From UHGV virus genome UHGV-0119144: a stretch of DNA of 18,430 nt. One strand, written 5' to 3'. This stretch comes from a virus. Position numbers and translations under genes: made by a program. Shown here piece after piece: positions 4,276-14,956 of this stretch; position 1 is the first letter of the stretch, and each line of letters begins with the position of its first letter. The notes beneath the pieces were generated by a model. The model made no database searches. It was given only the letters and a program-made list of their open reading frames with translations, and was not told the origin of the DNA.

Positions 4276-7200
4276 CTATATTTTTCCGCCTACGTCTTTA
4301 AACTTCTCAATAAACGAGACGATTTTCTGGAAAACTGCCTGTTTTTTCGTTTTATATTGCGGATTTAACGGACTAAGTTTTGGTAATGTTTCGTTTAATT
4401 CTGTGCCATTTTCGGTGGCATATTTGCGTTTTAAAGATGTGCGAATATAGCGTTTTGCTGCATCTTCATTGAGATTTTCTTCTTTAATCAACGCTTCTGC
4501 TTCACGTAGCTGTTCGTGTTGAGCAAAGGTAAAGAACGCGTCAATGATGCTGGCTTTGTCTGGTAAATCATCCAGGTTCGTTTGCTGAATAAAATCGACC
4601 ACCAGGCCCTCTTTCGCCCGGTTCCCCAGGCTTGAACGAATTAAGCGTTTGACCTCTTCGATCATTTCGCCCTTGCCTTTATTTTGTCTGTTATGTTCGA
4701 AAATCAGTCCAAGGATATAATCCAGGTTTATTTCCTGAGATTTCAGCAAATCGACCTCAAAAACTACGTCATCCCAGTCAGTGGTTGATTTCTCTTTTTT
4801 CTCAGCTTCTTTCTCACGGCGCTGCCAGTCGCGAATATCGTTATAGGCAGAACGATAATCCTGAATCTTGCGATCAGCAGGGAGACGAATTGTTTGCAAT
4901 TCAGCGAACTTTTCATCATCCACATAATGTTCTGCTTTGAATTTTTCTACCGCAACAGGATCGCTAAGATCGATTTGTTGCAGGGCTTTTAGCGTGGCAA
5001 ATTCATCATAGTTTTGCAGGATGTTCTCGGCACGCAGGTATTCGCCAAACAGTTTAACGAAGTCTTTCTTCTCTTTTTCACTTTCAATACTGGCAGGGTC
5101 AGGGAACCGTTGTTCCAGTTCTGAAACTACTGTCATGAAGCCGCGTTTAGCTTCACCTGTAGCAGCATCAGTAAAGCCTTCCATATACTCTGTATAACTC
5201 TTTTCTAACACCACATTTTTGGTGTTTTTGTCACCAAACAGCGTTATGGCATCAATAGTTGAGCGTTCCAGATCCCGGAAAGTGACGATATTACCGAAGG
5301 TTTTAGTTGCATCATAAATACGGTTGGTGCGGGAAAATGCCTGCATCAGGCCGTGAAAACGCAAGTTTTTATCGACGAATAGCGTGTTCAATGTTGGAGC
5401 ATCGAAGCCGGTTAAAAACATCCCCACGACAATTAGCAGATCGATATCCTGATTTTTAACCCGCTGGGCTAAATCACGATAGTAGTTCTGAAAACCGTTA
5501 CTGTCGGTGCTAAAGTTAGTTTTAAAATGGCTGTTATATTCACGAATTGCAGCGTCCAGAAACTCTTTAGCACTGCTGTCCATTGCGCTGGTATCAAAAG
5601 TTTCATCGGAAATTTCACCAATGGCATTTTGTTCTTCATTGGCGGCAAAGGAGAAGATTGTCGCAATACGCAGCGGTTTATAGGTAGCCGATTTATTAGC
5701 GGCTTCTTCTTGTAACCGTTTAAACGTCGCATAATAGGCTTTCGCGGCATCCACGCTGCTCACTGCCAGCATGGCATTAAAGCCTTTGGAGCCTGGGAAG
5801 GTACGGTGGGTTTTCTGGCGGAAGTTGTTCAGGATATATTGCGTGATTTCCTGAATACGCATGGGATGAAGAAACGCCTGCTGATTTTCAGCCGCACTTA
5901 GTTTTTTCTCGTCAGTTTCTGTCTCTAAAGACTTAAACTGTGGCCGCACATCGTTGTAGTCTACCTTGAATTTGAGCACTTTTTCGTCACGAATCGCATC
6001 GGTAATTACATACGAATGCAATTCACGACCAAATACGCTGGCGGTTGTTTCTGAGCCTAAGGCGTTTTCCGGGAAAATAGGGGTGCCGGTAAAACCAAAC
6101 TGATAATAGCGTTTGAATTTCTTCTTCAGGTTTTTCTGCGCTTCTCCAAACTGGCTGCGGTGGCATTCATCAAATATAAACACCACTTGCTGATTATATA
6201 CAGGCAGGTCGCTTTCTGCTTTCATCAGGTTATTGAGTTTCTGAATAGTGGTGACGATAATTTTGTTATCGTCCTTATCCAGATTTCGTTTAAGACCTGC
6301 GGTATTTTCCGAGCCGTTGACGCTGTCTGGCGAAAAACGCTGGTATTCCTTCATGGTCTGGTAATCGAGGTCTTTCCTGTCGACCACGAAGAAGACTTTA
6401 TCAATAAAGTCCAGTTCTGTTGCCAGACGCGCGGCTTTAAAGCTGGTCAGTGTTTTACCAGAACCGGTAGTGTGCCAGATAAAGCCACCGCTTTCGGGGT
6501 TAGACCAGTTTTTCGCTTTATAGGAGCTGTTGATTTTCCATAAGATTCGTTCGGTGGCGGCAATCTGGTACGGTCGCATCACCAGTAGCGTCTGACTACT
6601 GTCAAAAACGCTGTAGTTCACCAGAACATTCAGCAGAGTATGTTTCTGGAAAAAGGTAGCGGTAAAGTCTTTGAGGTCTTTAATCAGCGTGTTGTCTGAT
6701 TTCGCCCAATTCATGGTGAAGTCAAAACTGTTTTTATCGCGCTTTGTCGTGTTGGCAAAATAACGGGTATCGGTGCCGTTAGAAATGACAAACAGTTGCA
6801 GATACTTAAACAGGGAATTTTCGCTGTTAAAACTCTCTTTACTGTAACGATGTATCTGGTTGAAAGCCTCACGAATCGCCACCCCGCGTTTTTTTAGTTC
6901 GATTTGCACCAGCGGTAAACCATTAACCAGGATCGTGACGTCATAACGGTTAGCATGAGAACCCGTCTGTTCAAACTGCTGGATAATCTGCACCTTATTG
7001 CGCATGAGATTCTTTTTATCTATCAAATAGATGTTCTCAAGACGCTCGTCATCAAAAATAAAGTCGCAAATATAGTCGATATGGATTTTACGGGTCTTAT
7101 CCAGAATGCCATCACTCGGGTTGTCCAGATACTGCTCCGTGAAACGCCGCCATTCGCTGTCATTAAACACCACACCATTGAGGTTCTGAAGCTGTTCCCG

Positions 7201-7392
7201 AACGTTGGCCAGCATCGCCGACTGTGATTTTACGGGTATAAATTCATAGCCCTGATTTCGCAGGTCCTGAATCAGTTCCCGTTCCAGGTCCGATTCACTC
7301 TGATAGCTGTCGCCTGTTGGCTCAGCTTTGATGTACTTATCAAGAACGATAAAGTTATTGGATTCAGCAATGGTGTGTGTCTGATGAGTCAT
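4276..7392 (-). CDS. hsdR: Type I restriction enzyme R subunit (HsdR), type IC / EcoR124 family
   Basis: 1038 aa; PD-(D/E)xK nuclease motif ([18 protein letters not shown]), helicase motifs TGSGKT and FDECH; N-terminus [14 protein letters not shown] as in EcoR124-type HsdR. Confidence 0.95.
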
Positions 7393-7513: not shown

Positions 7514-8727
<1,214 letters not shown>

Positions 8728-8731
<4 letters not shown>

Positions 8732-10290
8732 TTCTGCACCTCGCAGCCTTCAATTTCAGCCACAATCGCATCAATATCTTTACGCAACTGGTCGATTTTG
8801 CTGACCGTGGTTTTCAGCTCTGCATTCAACTCAGCGATATTGATAATTTCGCGAGTATCTTTCGCTTCCACATAGCTGCTTACCGACAGGTTATAGTCAT
8901 TAGCGACAACGGCCTCAAACGTGACAGATTTTGCCAGATGAGCAACATCTTCCTTGCTGGAAAATACCTGCATAATCTGTTCGATATGGGCATCAGTCAG
9001 GATGTTGTTATTAGTCTCTTTTTTGAATAGCTCGCTGGCGTCAATAAACTGAACGTTGGTATCGGTTTTATGTTTAGACAGCACCAGAATATTGACGGCA
9101 ATGGTGGTGCCAAAGAACAGATTCGGTGCCAGTGAAATCACGGTTTCGACATAGTTATTGTCGACCAGATACTGACGGATTTTCTGCTCCGCACCGCCAC
9201 GGTAAAAAATACCCGGGAAGCAAACAATCGCAGCACGACCTTTGGCAGAAAGATAGTTCAGCGCATGTAATACAAACGCAAAGTCAGCTTTGGATTTGGG
9301 GGCCAGAACGCCAGCCGGGGCAAAACGTTCATCGTTAATCAGCGTCGGGTCATCGCTGCCAATCCATTTCACCGAATACGGCGGGTTAGAAACGATGGCA
9401 TCAAACGGTTTTTCATCTCTGAAGTGCGGTTCAGTCAGCGTATTGCCCAGCTTGATATCAAACTTGTCGTAGTTGATGTTGTGCAAAAACATGTTCATAC
9501 GCGCCAGGTTATAGGTCGTATGGTTGATTTCCTGACCAAAAAAACCTTCTTCGATGATATGGTCATCAAACTGTTTTTTAGCCTGCAACAACAGCGAACC
9601 GGAGCCTGCTGCCGGGTCGTAGATTTTGTTAACGTGGGTCTGCCCGTGCATAGCCAGTTGTGCAATCAGCTTAGAGACGTGCTGCGGTGTAAAGAACTCG
9701 CCGCCTGACTTACCGGCATTTGCCGCATAGTTAGAGATCAGGAACTCATAGGCATCACCGAACAGGTCAATCTGATGTTCGTTGAAGTCACCAAGTTTTA
9801 ACCCTTCAACCCCTTTCAGAACCGCAGCCAGGCGGGCATTTTTATCTTTAACGGTGTTACCCAGGCGGTTACTGGTGGTATCGAAATCAGCAAACAAACC
9901 TTTGATGTCTGCTTCTGAAGGGTAGCCGTAAGCAGAACTTTCGATAGCAACGAAGATGCTGTTTAAATCTGCGTTCAGTCTGTCATTGGTATTTGCTTTC
10001 GCAGCTACGTTGCAGAAAAGCTGACTTGGGTAGATGAAGTAGCCTTTGGTTTTGATGGCATCGTCTTTAATGTCATCAGTAATTACGCTGTCATCCAGTT
10101 TCGCATAACAGATGCTGTCATCACCGGCTTCAATATAGCTGGAAAAATTTTCGCTGATAAAACGGTAGAAAAGCGCGCCCAGAACGTATTGCTTAAAATC
10201 CCATCCATCGACCGAACCTCTGACATCGTTAGCAATTTGCCAGATTTGACGATGAAGCTCTGCACGTTGTTGAATACTTGTCATTTTCAT
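8728..10290 (-). CDS. hsdM: Type I N6-adenine DNA methyltransferase subunit (HsdM), type IC
   Basis: 520 aa; SAM-binding motif [10 protein letters not shown] and catalytic NPPY. Confidence 0.95.
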
Positions 10291-10427
10291 CCACTTATTT
10301 CAGGCTTATGTAATTGGCGGTGATTCTACAGCAACTTGGATGCTTTAGCAGTTCGGACATTAGGCTACGAATGACCTGCCTAGAGGTTTGTTAAGCCGCA
10401 AAGTGCTGGTGCTTTATGCCTGTGAAG

Positions 10428-10460
10428 TTTATAATTGTGTACACATAACGAGTACACGAG
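10428..10460 (+). promoter_or_regulatory. phd-doc promoter with Phd/Doc autoregulatory operator palindromes
   Basis: -10 TATAAT at 10430-10435, followed by perfect palindrome tgtgtacaca (10436-10445) and related gagtacac (10450-10457), then GAGG RBS. Confidence 0.6.
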
Positions 10461-10466
10461 GTATTT

Positions 10467-10688
10467 ATGCAATCCATTAACTTCCGTACCGCGCGCGGCA
10501 ACCTTTCTGAAGTGCTCAACAATGTTGAGGCCGGGGAAGAGGTTGAAATCACCCGCAGAGGCCGTGAGCCAGCAGTAATTGTCAGCAAGGCTACTTTTGA
10601 AGCCTACAAAAAAGCGGCGCTGGATGCTGAATTTGCATCCCTGTTTGACACCCTGGACTCCACCAACAAGGAACTGGTTAACCGATAA
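10467..10688 (+). CDS. phd: Phd antitoxin (Phd/YefM family), P1-type
   Basis: 73 aa, [49 protein letters not shown]; stop overlaps the doc start (TAATG). Confidence 0.95.
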
Positions 10689-11068
10689 TGAGGCATATAT
10701 CACCGGAAGAACTTATTGCGCTTCATGATGCGAATATAAACCGCTACGGCGGCCTGCCGGGAATGTCTGATCCGGGTAGGGCAGAGGCCATTATCGGGAG
10801 AGTTCAGGCCAGAGTTGCCTACGAAGAGATCACCGACCTTTTCGAAGTCTCCGCCACCTACCTGGTGGCTACGGCGAGAGGGCATATATTCAATGATGCC
10901 AATAAGCGTACCGCGCTAAACAGTGCGCTGCTATTTCTACGCCGTAACGGGGTGCAGGTATTTGATTCACCTGAACTGGCAGACCTTACTGTAGGCGCTG
11001 CGACTGGCGAGATATCTGTATCTTCTGTCGCCGACACGTTACGTAGATTGTATGGTTCTGCGGAGTAG
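10688..11068 (+). CDS. doc: Doc toxin (Fic-fold kinase), P1-type
   Basis: 126 aa with Fic motif HIFNDANKR. Confidence 0.95.
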
Positions 11069-11072
11069 ATTA

Positions 11073-11252
11073 ATGGCACGTAAATACAACAAATTGTCCC
11101 GTGAAGCGTTAAAGATGCTTCTTGATGGCGTGAGTCGCCGCGAGGTAAAGCAATACCTGGCTGGTAAGCAAATTGGTGCCAGGACCGCTATTGCTGTGTT
11201 ATGCCGTCAGGAAATGGTTGTGCTTAAACAGAGAATGCCGGGCAGCATATAA
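11073..11252 (+). CDS. Small basic hypothetical protein (occupies the P1 pdcA position)
   Basis: 59-aa ORF starting 4 nt after the doc stop: MARKYNKLSREALKMLLDGVSRREVKQYLAGKQIG. The track's longer version (11052) overlaps doc. Confidence 0.4.
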   Translation: MARKYNKLSREALKMLLDGVSRREVKQYLAGKQIGARTAIAVLCRQEMVVLKQRMPGSI

Positions 11253-11279
11253 AGCCCAATCAGTGATTAAAGGTGTGAT

Positions 11280-12323
11280 GTGAAAGCCGTAATTACTCCC
11301 TTTGTACAGAAAGAACTTGGCCTCGCCACGTTCAAAGTGGATCAGGAGGTCAGAAAGCTGGTGGAGGCTGGCCGTAAATTTATTATGGAGCCGGTGCCGC
11401 GTGAGTTAATCGAGCACATGGACGACGGCCTCGTTGCTTCCGAGCAAACTATAGCAACAAATGAGGCGTTGCAGCCGTTTTTTAACAGCGATGAACTGTT
11501 TCGCCGTATTGGTGGAATTGACGCGCTGGTGGCGTGGTTGCGCAGGAAAGAGGGGCAATGCCAGGCCGCAGATCGTAGCTGGTGTGACAACCATATTGTC
11601 CACGCTGAACGAGACAATAGCGCGGTGTTGTTGTGCTGGCATCACGATAACCATTACCGGATGCGTGGTTTTAATGAGCTGAAAGAAACGCTGCACAATA
11701 ATCGCGTTAACTGGATACTGGATGTCGCCCGTCAGGAAATGGGCCTTTCAGATAGCCATGATTTAAGTATTCAGGAGCTGTGCTGGTGGGCTTTCATGCG
11801 TAACATGATGCACCTGATGCCGGAAGAAGTCTGCCGCATATCAATAAATAAGATGAAGGCTGCTCCGCAGGATAGCGGACCTCTGAAAGAGGCGGATATT
11901 CGCCCGTATGACGATCGCGCTACAGCATATGTTCAGATGATGGAAGAACGCGCCGCGCCGATGCGTGCAAAAGTATGCCCTGTGGATGTTGACTCCGACC
12001 CAGGTATGGCGCATTTCAAAATACCAAAACTTCAATCGCTAAAATTGCCCGAGTACATGGACTTTGTGGCTTCCCGTCCATGCTGTGGCTGTGGAGCTGC
12101 GGGAGCTGGCGCTCACATTACGCCTTATATCGTTCGTCATAGTCGATTATGCGCGCATGACATTTACGCAATTCCTCTGTGCCAGTCATGCCAGCGTGAT
12201 ATTGAGCGTGACCGCGATAATTGGGAGAAGACGCACGGTAGGCTGGCGATGCATCAACGATTGTTCTTTGATTACGCGCTTGGAGTCGGCGCTATCACAA
12301 GTTACTCGTCGAGCGTTAGATAA
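11280..12323 (+). CDS. Cys/His-rich hypothetical protein (occupies the P1 pdcB position)
   Basis: 347-aa ORF, GTG start behind AAGGTG; metal-ligand-like clusters [15 protein letters not shown]...CWHHDNH and C-terminal CCGCGAAG...LCAHD...CQSCQRD. Confidence 0.5.
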
Positions 12324-12324
12324 A

Positions 12325-12341
12325 ATTGCTCTAATGTATTG
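12325..12341 (+). promoter_or_regulatory. P1 C1 operator-like site (14/17), with an overlapping partial repeat ATTGCTAT
   Basis: attgctctaatgtattg immediately after the stop at 12321-12323; followed by inverted repeat gattag/ctaatc around TTGACA (12376-12398). Confidence 0.5.
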
Positions 12342-12411
12342 CTATTTCTTTAATCGATGGTATTATATTCCACGTTGATTAGTTGACATGGGCTAATCAG
12401 TAGGTGACAGG

Positions 12412-12726
12412 ATGTTACTTAACTGGCAGGGACGCCACTTCATGGAAATAAATCACTCACGAATAACATCGTACGAGATTGCGAATTACATGATCCGCAC
12501 TAAATCTCTTCTATCAGCGAAAGAACTCGCAGCAATTCTTGAAAAGGAATACCCGCATCTGGATGTCGATAAGCGCGATGTTTATCTGCGCTTAAAAGCT
12601 ATCGCTGTGTCTAAGTATTCGTCTGTTTTGATTGATGACAGTACGAACGAAAGCGTGAAAATAACTGGTCAGTGCTGGAAGCAGCTGAATTCATCGAGGC
12701 GCATGGCGGGAAAGTGCCGCCCCTGA
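12412..12726 (+). CDS. Hypothetical protein (alternative start ATG 12442); possible late-activator (lpa-position) gene
   Basis: ORF downstream of an operator; no domain recognised; overlaps the next ORF by 55 nt. Confidence 0.3.
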
Positions 12727-13043
12727 TGCTGGAGCAAATCAAAGCCGATCTGCGTGCTCCTAAGACCAATACCGATGATGAGGAAAGGCAAACAGCCGTC
12801 GGTGGCCCTTCTCTTGAAGATCTGGACAAAGTTGCGCGAGAACGGGCCGCCAACCGCCGCGCCGATGCCGCATTGTGGATTGAGCAGCGTAGGGAAGAAA
12901 TCGCCGATATCGTTGATACAGGCGGTTATGGAGATGTTGATACTGAAGGTGTATCAAACGACCCATGGCTGGAACAAGACCTGGACGAAGACGAGGAGGA
13001 AGACGAAGAAGTTACCCGCAAGCTATACGGGGATGATGATTAA
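12672..13043 (+). CDS. Acidic protein translationally coupled to terminase large subunit (possible small-subunit remnant)
   Basis: GTG start; C-terminus [12 protein letters not shown]...DDD; stop overlaps the ATG of the next gene (TAATG). No cluster of TGATCA/G pac hexamers seen in 12300-13100. Confidence 0.35.
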
Positions 13044-14956
13044 TGGCCAGAAGTTGCGTAACGGATCCACGTTGGCGCGAGCTGGTGGCGCTATATCGTT
13101 ATGACTGGATTGCGGCCGCTGATGTTTTGTTCGGCAAAACACCTACCTGGCAGCAGGATCTGATTATTGAGTCTGTGCAGGAACAGGGTAGCAAGACATC
13201 TGTTTCGTCTGGTCACGGTACCGGGAAATCAGACATGACTTCTATCATGATCATGTTGTTCATAATCATGTATCCCGGTGCCCGCGCCATTATCGTTGCG
13301 AACAAAATTCAGCAGGTAATGACCGGTATATTCAAGTACATCAAGATAAACTGGGCTACTGCCACCAGCCGTTTTCCATGGCTTGCTGATTATTTTGTTC
13401 TGACAGAAACCGCTTTCTATGAGGTTACTGGTTGGATTTGCCCCTATATTTCCAGACACCTGTTATCACTTAACCCATTACTGGCTTGCTGCCGTAGATA
13501 TTCCCGTGGCGAGCGATAACCCAGTGCACTATGCGGATGCCATTCGTTATAATGCTCGAACGCCTCTGCAAGGTTCTTTGCTGCCGTTAACCCGTCTGGT
13601 TTGGGCATGACACTGATGTAGTCACGCTTTATCGTTTTCACGAAGCTCTCTGCTATGCCGTTACTCTCCGGACTCCGCACCGCCGTGCTCTTCGGTTCAA
13701 GCCCCAACATCCGGGCAAACTGCCGTGTTTCATTAGCCCGGTAGCATGAACCATTATCCGTCAGCCACTCTACTGGAGACGCCGGAAGCTCGTTGCCGAA
13801 GCGGCGTTCCACCGCTCCCAGCATGACGTCCTGTACTGTTTCACTGTTGAAGCCGCCCGTAGTGACCGCCCAGTGCAGTGCCTCACGGTCACAGCAGTCC
13901 AGCGCGAACGTGACTCGCAGTTTTTCTCCGTTATCACAGCGGAACTCGAACCCGTCAGAGCACCATCGCTGATTACTTTCTTTCACAGCCACTCTGCCTG
14001 TATGTGCCCGTTTCGATGGCGGTACAGCAGGTTTTCGCTCAAGCAACAGCGCATTCTGGCGCATGATCCGGTAAACACGTTTGGCATTGATCGCAGGCAT
14101 ACCATCAAGTTCTGCCTGTCTGCGAAGCAGCGCCCATAACAGTGAGGAATCACCGCTGGTAACGTCAGAATTTATCAAAATGAAGCTGGCGGAGTACGGC
14201 GGGCGTGATAACCCTATGTACATGATTAAGGTACGCGGCCTATTCCCTAAATTACAGGACGGCTTCCTTCTTGGACGTGATGAGGTTGAACGTGCGACGC
14301 GGCGGAAAGTCAAGATTGCCAAAGGATGGGGCTGGCTTGCATGTGTGGACGTTGCTGGTGGTACAGGACGGGATAAGTCCTTTATCAATATCATGATGGT
14401 GTCCGGCCAGCGAAATAAACGCCGTGTAATCAACTATCGAATGCTGGAATACACAGACGTTACAGAAACGCAGCTTGCCGCCAAAATTTTCGCAGAATGT
14501 AATCCTGAGCGATTCCCCAATATCACCATAGCGATAGACGGCGATGGCCTGGGTAAAGCAACGGCGGATCTGATGTACGAGTATTATGGTATTACCGTAC
14601 AGCGTATACGCTGGGGTAAAAAGATGCATAGCCGTGAAGATAAGAGCCTGTACTTTGATAAACGTGCTTATGCCAACGTTCAAGCCGCAGAGGCCGTAAA
14701 ATCTGGTCGTATGAGACTGGATAAGGGTAATGAAACTATTGAGGAAGCGTCGAAAATCCCTGTAGGGATTAACTCCGCAGGTCAATGGAAGGTGATGAGT
14801 AAGGAGGATATGAAGAAAAAACTCAACCTGCACTCACCAGACCATTGGGATACATATTGTTTCGCTATGCTGGCGGATTATGTTCCCCAGGACGAAGTGC
14901 TTAGCGTCGAAGACGAAGCGCAGGTTGATGAAGCTCTGGCATGGCTTAATGAATAA
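13043..14956 (+). pseudogene. Terminase large subunit (PacB-like) interrupted by an IS2 fragment
   Basis: N-terminal 130 codons (13043-13432) carry a deviant Walker A (SSGHGTGKS); C-terminal part (about 14139-14956) is terminase-like. The two parts are separated by 706 bp of IS2 and are not joinable in frame. Confidence 0.55.
13433..14138 (-). mobile_element. insD: IS2 (IS3 family) 3' fragment: right terminal region plus C-terminal ~230 codons of insD
   Basis: Minus-strand translation 13444-14136 matches IS2 InsD from [28 protein letters not shown] to NRCLEI; IS2 terminus TGGATTTGCCCCTATATTTCCAGACACCTG at 13433. insC and the left end are absent. Confidence 0.88.

Follow-up and report, generated by a model that had tools for sequence, protein, structure and literature searches.

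The 18,430-nucleotide virus genome UHGV-0119144 (the window, meaning the whole stretch of DNA that was analysed) carries a defective P1-like plasmid prophage in which the toxin–antitoxin (TA) genes phd and doc are followed by the phage P1 genes pdcA and pdcB. The product of pdcB is most plausibly read, at a probability of roughly 0.55, as a zinc-stabilised, non-catalytic DNA-binding protein, a pseudo-nuclease whose adjacency to the TA pair would be historical. On this reading, P1 PdcB would no longer cleave DNA through the canonical centre of its His-Me finger fold and would most likely act as an accessory protein, produced in the early phase and in the plasmid phase and not needed for plaque formation; ancestrally it probably served to process or recombine DNA where the early (nin-like) region ends, just before the late-gene switch.

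The gene pdcB is functionally blank, in a phage that is a workhorse of bacterial genetics, although surveys of P1-like phage-plasmids, elements that spread resistance genes, find it extremely conserved; the literature gives its function as unknown. Both genes, and the family assignment of PdcB, are already known, and the results presented here tidy the annotation of a known gene without overturning current understanding. The refinements are modest: the catalytic tetrad has been lost throughout a clade in which purifying selection on the gene is strong, a near-universal N-terminal metal site lies in a domain without a solved structural relative, and the neighbourhood with late regulators is conserved.

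Identity of the two open reading frames

Positions 10400 to 12500 of the window match phages P1, P7, SJ46 and RCS47 at 98% nucleotide identity (megablast), with 98.2% identity to P1 across 2,254 ungapped bases, and the encoded proteins share 97% (PdcB) and 95% (PdcA) identity with their P1 counterparts. Gene order, phd-doc-pdcA-pdcB-lpa, is also that of P1, and sequence and order together identify the region as P1 pdcA and pdcB. The P1 genome annotation (GenBank AF234172) gives both as ‘unknown protein function’, and the counterparts in P7 are named Fdc and Upf95.7. A first-pass annotation, made from the letters of the sequence and its predicted open reading frames (ORFs), had described a Cys/His-rich protein of 347 amino acids (aa) and a small basic protein directly downstream of doc; both ORFs are present, closely spaced on one strand (doc stop 11068, pdcA ATG 11073, pdcB start 11280). 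Its view that the function of the larger protein is uncharacterised agrees with the P1 annotation and with a literature search on the prophage relative YdfU, in which no functional study was found. The features of the two genes are as follows.

11073-11252, plus strand: pdcA, a 59-aa basic ORF, with an alternative annotated start at 11052 that would give 66 aa
11280-12323, plus strand: pdcB, with a GTG start, encoding a 347-aa YdfU/DUF968-family protein
11280-11984, plus strand: N-terminal domain of PdcB (residues 1-235), without significant match to a solved fold
11559-11654, plus strand: putative N-terminal zinc site (C94, C102, C119, H122), with the invariant CWHHDN(H) motif
12066-12215, plus strand: C-terminal His-Me finger (beta-beta-alpha) module, with the Cys4 set C268, C271, C301 and C304 kept

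Domain structure and putative metal sites of PdcB

PdcB scores 170.4 bits (E=4.9e-50) with Pfam DUF968 (PF06147), whose gathering threshold is 27.8, with the match spanning residues 161-337 and profile positions 1-171, and matches phrog_96 (‘HNH endonuclease’) over its full length (E=1e-128). An exhaustive HMMER search returned 135 representative clusters of homologs, of which about 55 cover the full length and align colinearly across residues 1-340, and phmmer aligns PdcB over the same residues with YdfU-type proteins, placing it within that family. YdfU of the Qin prophage and lambdoid DUF968 proteins are colinear with PdcB over the full length at 25-30% identity; shared between them are an N-terminal C/C-H/C/H-C site, a Cys-rich His-Me finger, a WE..HG tail and a position just before a late regulator. 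Apparent fusions of the YdfU N-terminal domain to tail-tip or tail-fibre, capsid, portal, tail-collar or Q proteins (P0044-P0054, P0076 and P0078) were rejected as real architectures; because their N-termini are near-identical and their partners implausible, they are probably chimeric or frameshifted assemblies or rearranged prophage remnants.

PdcB, for which there is a confident AlphaFold2 (AF2) model (predicted local distance difference test score, pLDDT, 88), has two domains: an N-terminal domain of about 235 residues is organised around a four-ligand Cys/His site and is followed by a C-terminal His-Me (HNH) finger with a Cys4 zinc site. The C-terminal module has the beta-beta-alpha fold of His-Me fingers, with structural zinc ligands, and hhalign places the second His of the family motif DPHH on the catalytic His (H32) of YbcO (DLP12 prophage, DUF1364; PDB 3g27). 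The His-Me fold is confirmed; HNH-like folds were among those for which the first-pass annotation had proposed a search. The YbcO link comes from hhalign only, and PDB sequence searches gave no match from either the single PdcB sequence or a 43-sequence profile. DUF968 and DUF1364 have been placed together in group 7 of the His-Me finger superfamily (Jablonska et al. 2017). YbcO is a 96-aa single domain that keeps its catalytic His (the AH in LAHIR), whereas PdcB has I284 at this position and a 235-aa N-terminal domain. That domain gave nothing significant against the PDB by Foldseek, and an internal duplication in PdcB was rejected, as hhalign of the N-terminal against the C-terminal module was not significant (E 0.09-0.14).

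The best structural match to PdcB is P1 Ref (PDB 3plw), a member of a different Pfam family (RecA_dep_nuc), at a sequence identity of 9%; Ref is described in the literature as an active RecA-dependent HNH nuclease with a disordered basic N-terminus. P1/D6-type phage-plasmids also encode a Ref-type nuclease (PF16786), which in a D6-like contig (L004, 904-1482, minus strand) lies about 5 kb from a degenerate PdcB homolog.

With 12 Cys and 15 His in 347 residues, PdcB carries the motifs C94-x7-C102-x2-H105, C119-W-H-H122, C268-C-G-C271-G and C301-x2-C304; these are the clusters picked out by the first-pass annotation, which had written the first spacing as x6. Ligand conservation was scored in a set of 60 full-length homologs whose identity falls as low as about 20%. 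C94 and C119 are each kept in 59 of the 60, position 102 is Cys in 37 and His in 20 (57/60), position 122 is His in 44 and Cys in 15 (59/60), and in the C-terminal module C268 is kept in 53, C271 in 45 and C301 in 45; W120, D123 and N124, which flank the N-terminal site, are highly conserved, and H105, H108, H125 and H279 are not. Because they are conserved among homologs the motifs exceed chance expectation, and the Cys-His exchanges at positions 102 and 122 keep ligand character and are therefore the signature of a metal site, which the AF2 model places at a beta-hairpin/helix junction (strands 106-111 and 114-119, helix 120-129). The Cys pattern, whose loss in homologs had been named beforehand as the observation that would count against zinc binding, is retained with C94 and C119 in all but one homolog each and C268 in most. 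The first interpretation of PdcB as a zinc-binding, HNH-like and experimentally uncharacterised protein accordingly survives, on the conserved ligands and the DUF968/His-Me finger match; its further suggestion of a conserved link to the TA pair does not, as set out below.

Loss of the catalytic histidines in the P1 clade

Distant homologs read C-x-x-C-G..AD-DPHH-IIGHGxGGMGTKAHDLFxIPLCRxCHxELH, with a colicin-like HH…H-x3-H arrangement, and YdfU-type proteins keep DPHH...CRxCHxxLH, whereas P1 PdcB has TPYI...CQSCQRDIE and has lost the five-residue GGMGT loop. In place of the family motif DPHH...C-x2-(C/H)-H-x3-H, PdcB reads T281-P-Y283-I284 and C304-Q305-x3-E309: the general-base His at the end of beta-strand 1 is I284 here and L or M in orthologs, and the metal-binding His/Asn of the alpha-helix is replaced by Q305 and E309, other P1-like orthologs having Q and A. 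A metal could in principle be coordinated by Gln or Glu, but E309 varies even among the P1-like orthologs. A motif table and a neighbour-joining tree confine the degenerate tetrads YIQE, YLQA, HRHK and FMAE to one clade, comprising P1, JK004-like, Pantoea and D6-like phage-plasmids, and HHHH is kept in all 31 other lineages. Degeneration within the family is reciprocal, the P1 clade keeping Cys4 with its His lost and other lineages the reverse; some lineages that keep HH..H..H (e.g. L011, L021, P0046, P0071 and P0087) have lost the zinc cysteines of the C-terminal module, with the patterns CTHE and CTSA.

The nearest experimentally characterised relative of the DUF968 HNH module is Gp16 of the Staphylococcus phage PhiNM1 (L106, 3052-3723), a Pfam HNHc_6 protein with a secondary DUF968 match above threshold and a RecA-interacting nickase (Nucleic Acids Research 2026, PMC12817073). 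Gp16 and canonical YdfU-type proteins show the same spacing, C-x2-C...H...C-x2-H-H-x3-H, and a canonical YdfU-type profile matches Gp16 with 94% probability (E=1e-7), whereas the profile of the P1 clade does not match it (hhalign E=0.12). Residues H157, H185 and H189 of Gp16, the latter two being the His of the family CH..LH motif, correspond to I284, Q305 and E309 in PdcB. The N-terminal domain of Gp16 is NinB/Orf-like, unlike that of PdcB; Gram-positive ‘DUF968’ proteins have been described in the literature as fusions of an Orf-like with an HNH domain. PdcB itself has no Pfam match to HNHc_6 (PF16784) and falls outside the HNHc_6/Gp16-type RecA-dependent nucleases.

Purifying selection on pdcB is as strong as that on phd and doc, the polymorphism ratio (nonsyn/N)/(syn/S) being 0.14 for pdcB against 0.12 for phd and 0.12 for doc. 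A non-catalytic role for PdcB is inferred because the catalytic His have been lost while the fold and the zinc Cys remain strongly constrained, and the label ‘HNH endonuclease’ for P1 PdcB, transferred by homology, is probably wrong in the catalytic sense. In published P1 studies pdcB is non-essential by CRISPR interference (CRISPRi) and by kan-cassette insertion, and early pdcB transcription during P1vir infection has been reported in a preprint. A more specific scenario is put forward tentatively, in which the His were lost a single time, in a common ancestor of the P1/D6-type phage-plasmids, and the pseudo-nuclease was kept, with both zinc scaffolds intact, as a non-cleaving DNA- or structure-binding factor whose place of action would be the transition from early to late phase or to packaging, or else the DNA metabolism of the plasmid state, with the near-invariant CWHHDN domain as the functional core of the YdfU family.

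Two observations weigh against a non-catalytic PdcB: H293-D294 and CWHHDN are invariant and could form another catalytic centre, and an H157A mutant of Gp16 still inhibited growth in vivo (PMC12817073). Taken with the confirmed His-Me fold, the strong purifying selection and the ‘HNH endonuclease’ labels of RefSeq and PHROG, they are the case for PdcB as an active HNH/His-Me endonuclease that uses substitute residues, for example H293/D294/E309 or H121/D123/N124 of the N-terminal module. Such an enzyme is judged unlikely. All four canonical catalytic or metal-binding His have become Y, I/L, Q and E/A throughout the clade with the adjoining loop deleted, the substitute E309 is often A even among P1-like orthologs, the profile of the clade no longer matches a characterised HNH nuclease, and the database labels themselves rest on homology transfer.

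Synteny with late regulators

The dereplication of 101 loci at 85% identity yielded 21 DUF968 lineages, in 17 of which a late regulator lies directly downstream: a Q or Q-like antiterminator in 14 (PF06530 in six, PF03589 in four, PF06323 in three and phrog_753 in one) and Lpa in three. The link recurs with five separately defined families and two genome architectures, and group 7 His-Me genes have been reported as neighbours of RusA and Q (Jablonska et al. 2017). The other four lineages depart from this: the D6-like one, two from Vibrio and one in which lysis genes follow at once. In the Vibrio phages (L011, 4721-5389; L021, 5419-6087), a conserved 222-aa ORF (phrog_34963, no Pfam match) stands between the DUF968 gene and the holin/lysozyme genes, in the slot taken by Q in lambdoid phages, and is a candidate for a late regulator from a family not yet described.

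In many phages the gene that stays beside pdcB is the late-gene regulator, and this directs attention to the early-to-late transition and DNA processing rather than plasmid addiction. A stronger proposal, that the PdcB/YdfU family is coupled to the late-gene switch itself, for example by serving Lpa or Q as cofactor or modulator or by processing DNA before it is packaged, draws on the recurrence of this neighbour across four Q or Q-like families and the unrelated Lpa, and on the conservation of the pdcB-lpa-pacA-pacB block in P1-like lineages with varying upstream genes. It is considered improbable, somewhat more so than an active nuclease: in lambdoid genomes the last place of the early operon is conserved no matter which gene fills it, and the synteny may reflect only a ‘last gene of the early region’; the pattern fails in D6-like and some Vibrio phages; lpa is served by a C1-controlled promoter of its own; and knock-down of pdcB or insertion into it leaves plating intact, whereas lpa is essential.

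Relationship to the phd-doc cassette

10467-11068, plus strand: phd-doc pair (Phd 10467-10688, Doc 10688-11068; Pfam PhdYeFM and Fic/DOC, in agreement with the P1 annotation)

For addiction, phd-doc alone suffices. The first-pass annotation had seen the position of the larger gene immediately 3' of the TA pair as conserved in appearance, and had proposed that co-occurrence with phd-doc be followed across genomes; the arrangement proves to be conserved in P1 proper only. Among 80 viral contigs with PdcB at least 97% identical, phd, doc and pdcA lie upstream of pdcB in 78-79, the other one or two possibly being cut at the contig end. Orthologs at 37-70% identity lack the association: the Cronobacter phage JK004 (67% identity) and the E. 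coli, Klebsiella and Salmonella lineages (65-70%) all carry pdcB-lpa-pacA-pacB behind variable upstream genes, with no Phd or Doc domains, and in the Pantoea and metagenomic lineage (37-38%) pdcB is followed by lpa, again without phd-doc. In D6, phd-doc-pdcA is present at 97.7% identity and the pdcB homolog (37%) lies about 5 kb off, after a ppp-like phosphatase gene.

Among plasmids, the full phd-doc-pdcA-pdcB block is found in only 656 of the 1,246 that carry this phd-doc; pdcA stays with phd-doc more often than pdcB does, though not always. A large class of CTX-M-15 IncF plasmids keeps hsdM-phd-doc-pdcA, with IS26 cutting pdcB after about 93 codons at the equivalent of window position 11557 (for example L104, NZ_CP028576.1, 2618-3388), and about a third of the sampled plasmid matches end precisely at this point; other plasmids have phd-doc-pdcA only, or phd-doc only. 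These distributions identify phd-doc(-pdcA), from comparison of gene neighbourhoods, as a mobile cassette whose insertion upstream of pdcB took place in the P1 lineage. Because pdcB-lpa-pacA-pacB is conserved and phd-doc-pdcA mobile, the adjacency of pdcB to the TA pair is read as historical and not functional. No promoter or convincing terminator was predicted between doc and pdcB, so read-through from Pphd is plausible; the promoter scan does recover 12339-12366 (Plpa), just past the pdcB stop codon.

The idea that pdcA and pdcB belong functionally to the addiction module, supplying additional regulators or modulators, can claim the tight doc-pdcA-pdcB spacing on one strand with no predicted signal between, the near-uniform arrangement in P1 proper and the company that pdcA keeps with phd-doc in D6, D6-like Salmonella plasmids and IncF plasmids, but is very improbable given the divergent orthologs with no phd-doc nearby, the many plasmids that lack the full block or have pdcB truncated by IS26 with phd-doc intact, the occurrence of phd-doc without pdcA, and the failure of PdcA and PdcB to match any PADLOC defence-system hidden Markov model at E<=0.1.

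PdcA as a weakly constrained reading frame

The start of pdcA at 11073 is favoured over the GenBank start at 11052 because GGAG at 11062-11065 lies 7 nucleotides ahead of the ATG, the profile of phrog_3345 (function unknown) aligns residues 8-65, from the Met at 11073, and 59 aa is the prevailing length of PdcA database entries, for which annotated lengths of 59, 65 and 66 aa occur. The product is basic (isoelectric point 10.7; 13 K+R against 4 D+E). Its homologs are all close, at 75% identity or above and from Escherichia and Salmonella, none more distant than about 75% being found, and there is no match in Pfam, NCBIfam, PDB, PADLOC or Rfam. In the sample selected on PdcB, which supplies the estimate retained here, the nonsynonymous/synonymous ratio of pdcA is 0.48 (p=0.053 against neutral) and is significantly more relaxed than those of phd, doc and pdcB; a ratio of 0.74 came from five sequences, too small a sample, and one of 0.29 (p=0.002) from a sample selected on PdcA and biased by that selection. 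All 79 copies, in 32 haplotypes, are free of stops and indels.

From these comparisons PdcA emerges as a basic ORF under weak constraint and of narrow taxonomic range that accompanies phd-doc, and it may be either a small basic protein that evolves fast and belongs to the cassette or simply an ORF that is tolerated. The latter, a non-functional frame in the cassette's 3' untranslated spacer, is a substantial possibility that falls short of being favoured: a ratio not significantly under neutral and looser than those of its neighbours, the higher value from the first small sample, the varying annotated length and the lack of distant homologs or of any family, structure or RNA match are what such a frame would show, while the intact ORF in every copy, a good Shine-Dalgarno sequence at the right spacing, a ratio that is still below 1 (and lower in the PdcA-biased sample) and retention alongside phd-doc in unrelated replicons argue for a coding function.

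Prophage context in the window

Homology to P1 begins at 10391, directly after type I hsdRSM genes. Compared with P1, the prophage differs by a few substitutions in the pdc region, by a type I restriction-modification system in place of humD upstream, and by a 1.1-kb deletion that truncates lpa and pacA. The neighbouring features are listed below.

4276-7392, minus strand: hsdR, type I restriction-modification system
7514-8731, minus strand: hsdS, type I restriction-modification system
8728-10290, minus strand: hsdM, type I restriction-modification system; the system as a whole takes the place of the humD side of P1 and adjoins phd where P1 homology starts
12325-12366, plus strand: C1 operator Olpa and promoter Plpa, placed by colinearity with P1 89904-89945 in an ungapped alignment
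12412-12726, plus strand: lpa, truncated (Pfam BPP1_LPA, profile positions 1-64 of 131 only)

The hsdM-phd junction is also found in an E. albertii P1-like plasmid and in the CTX-M-15 IncF plasmids, and because it recurs hsd-phd-doc-pdcA appears to move as a block. The deletion relative to P1 measures 1,097 bp by blastn (P1 90224-91320, junction at 12644) and takes out everything in lpa past about codon 77, the late promoter LPpac, the cleavage site at pac and some 264 codons of pacA, leaving ORF 12412-12726 as a truncated Lpa fusion and ORF 12672-13043 as the PacA C-terminus; with these parts of lpa, pac and pacA deleted, the prophage is predicted to have lost both late-gene activation and DNA packaging. 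Further downstream, pacB, which starts at 13043, is interrupted by an IS2-like (IS3 family) transposase fragment at about 13432-14137 (ORF 13444-14433, minus strand), and the pacB flanks of this fragment are 84-87% identical to P1, against 98% in the pdc region.
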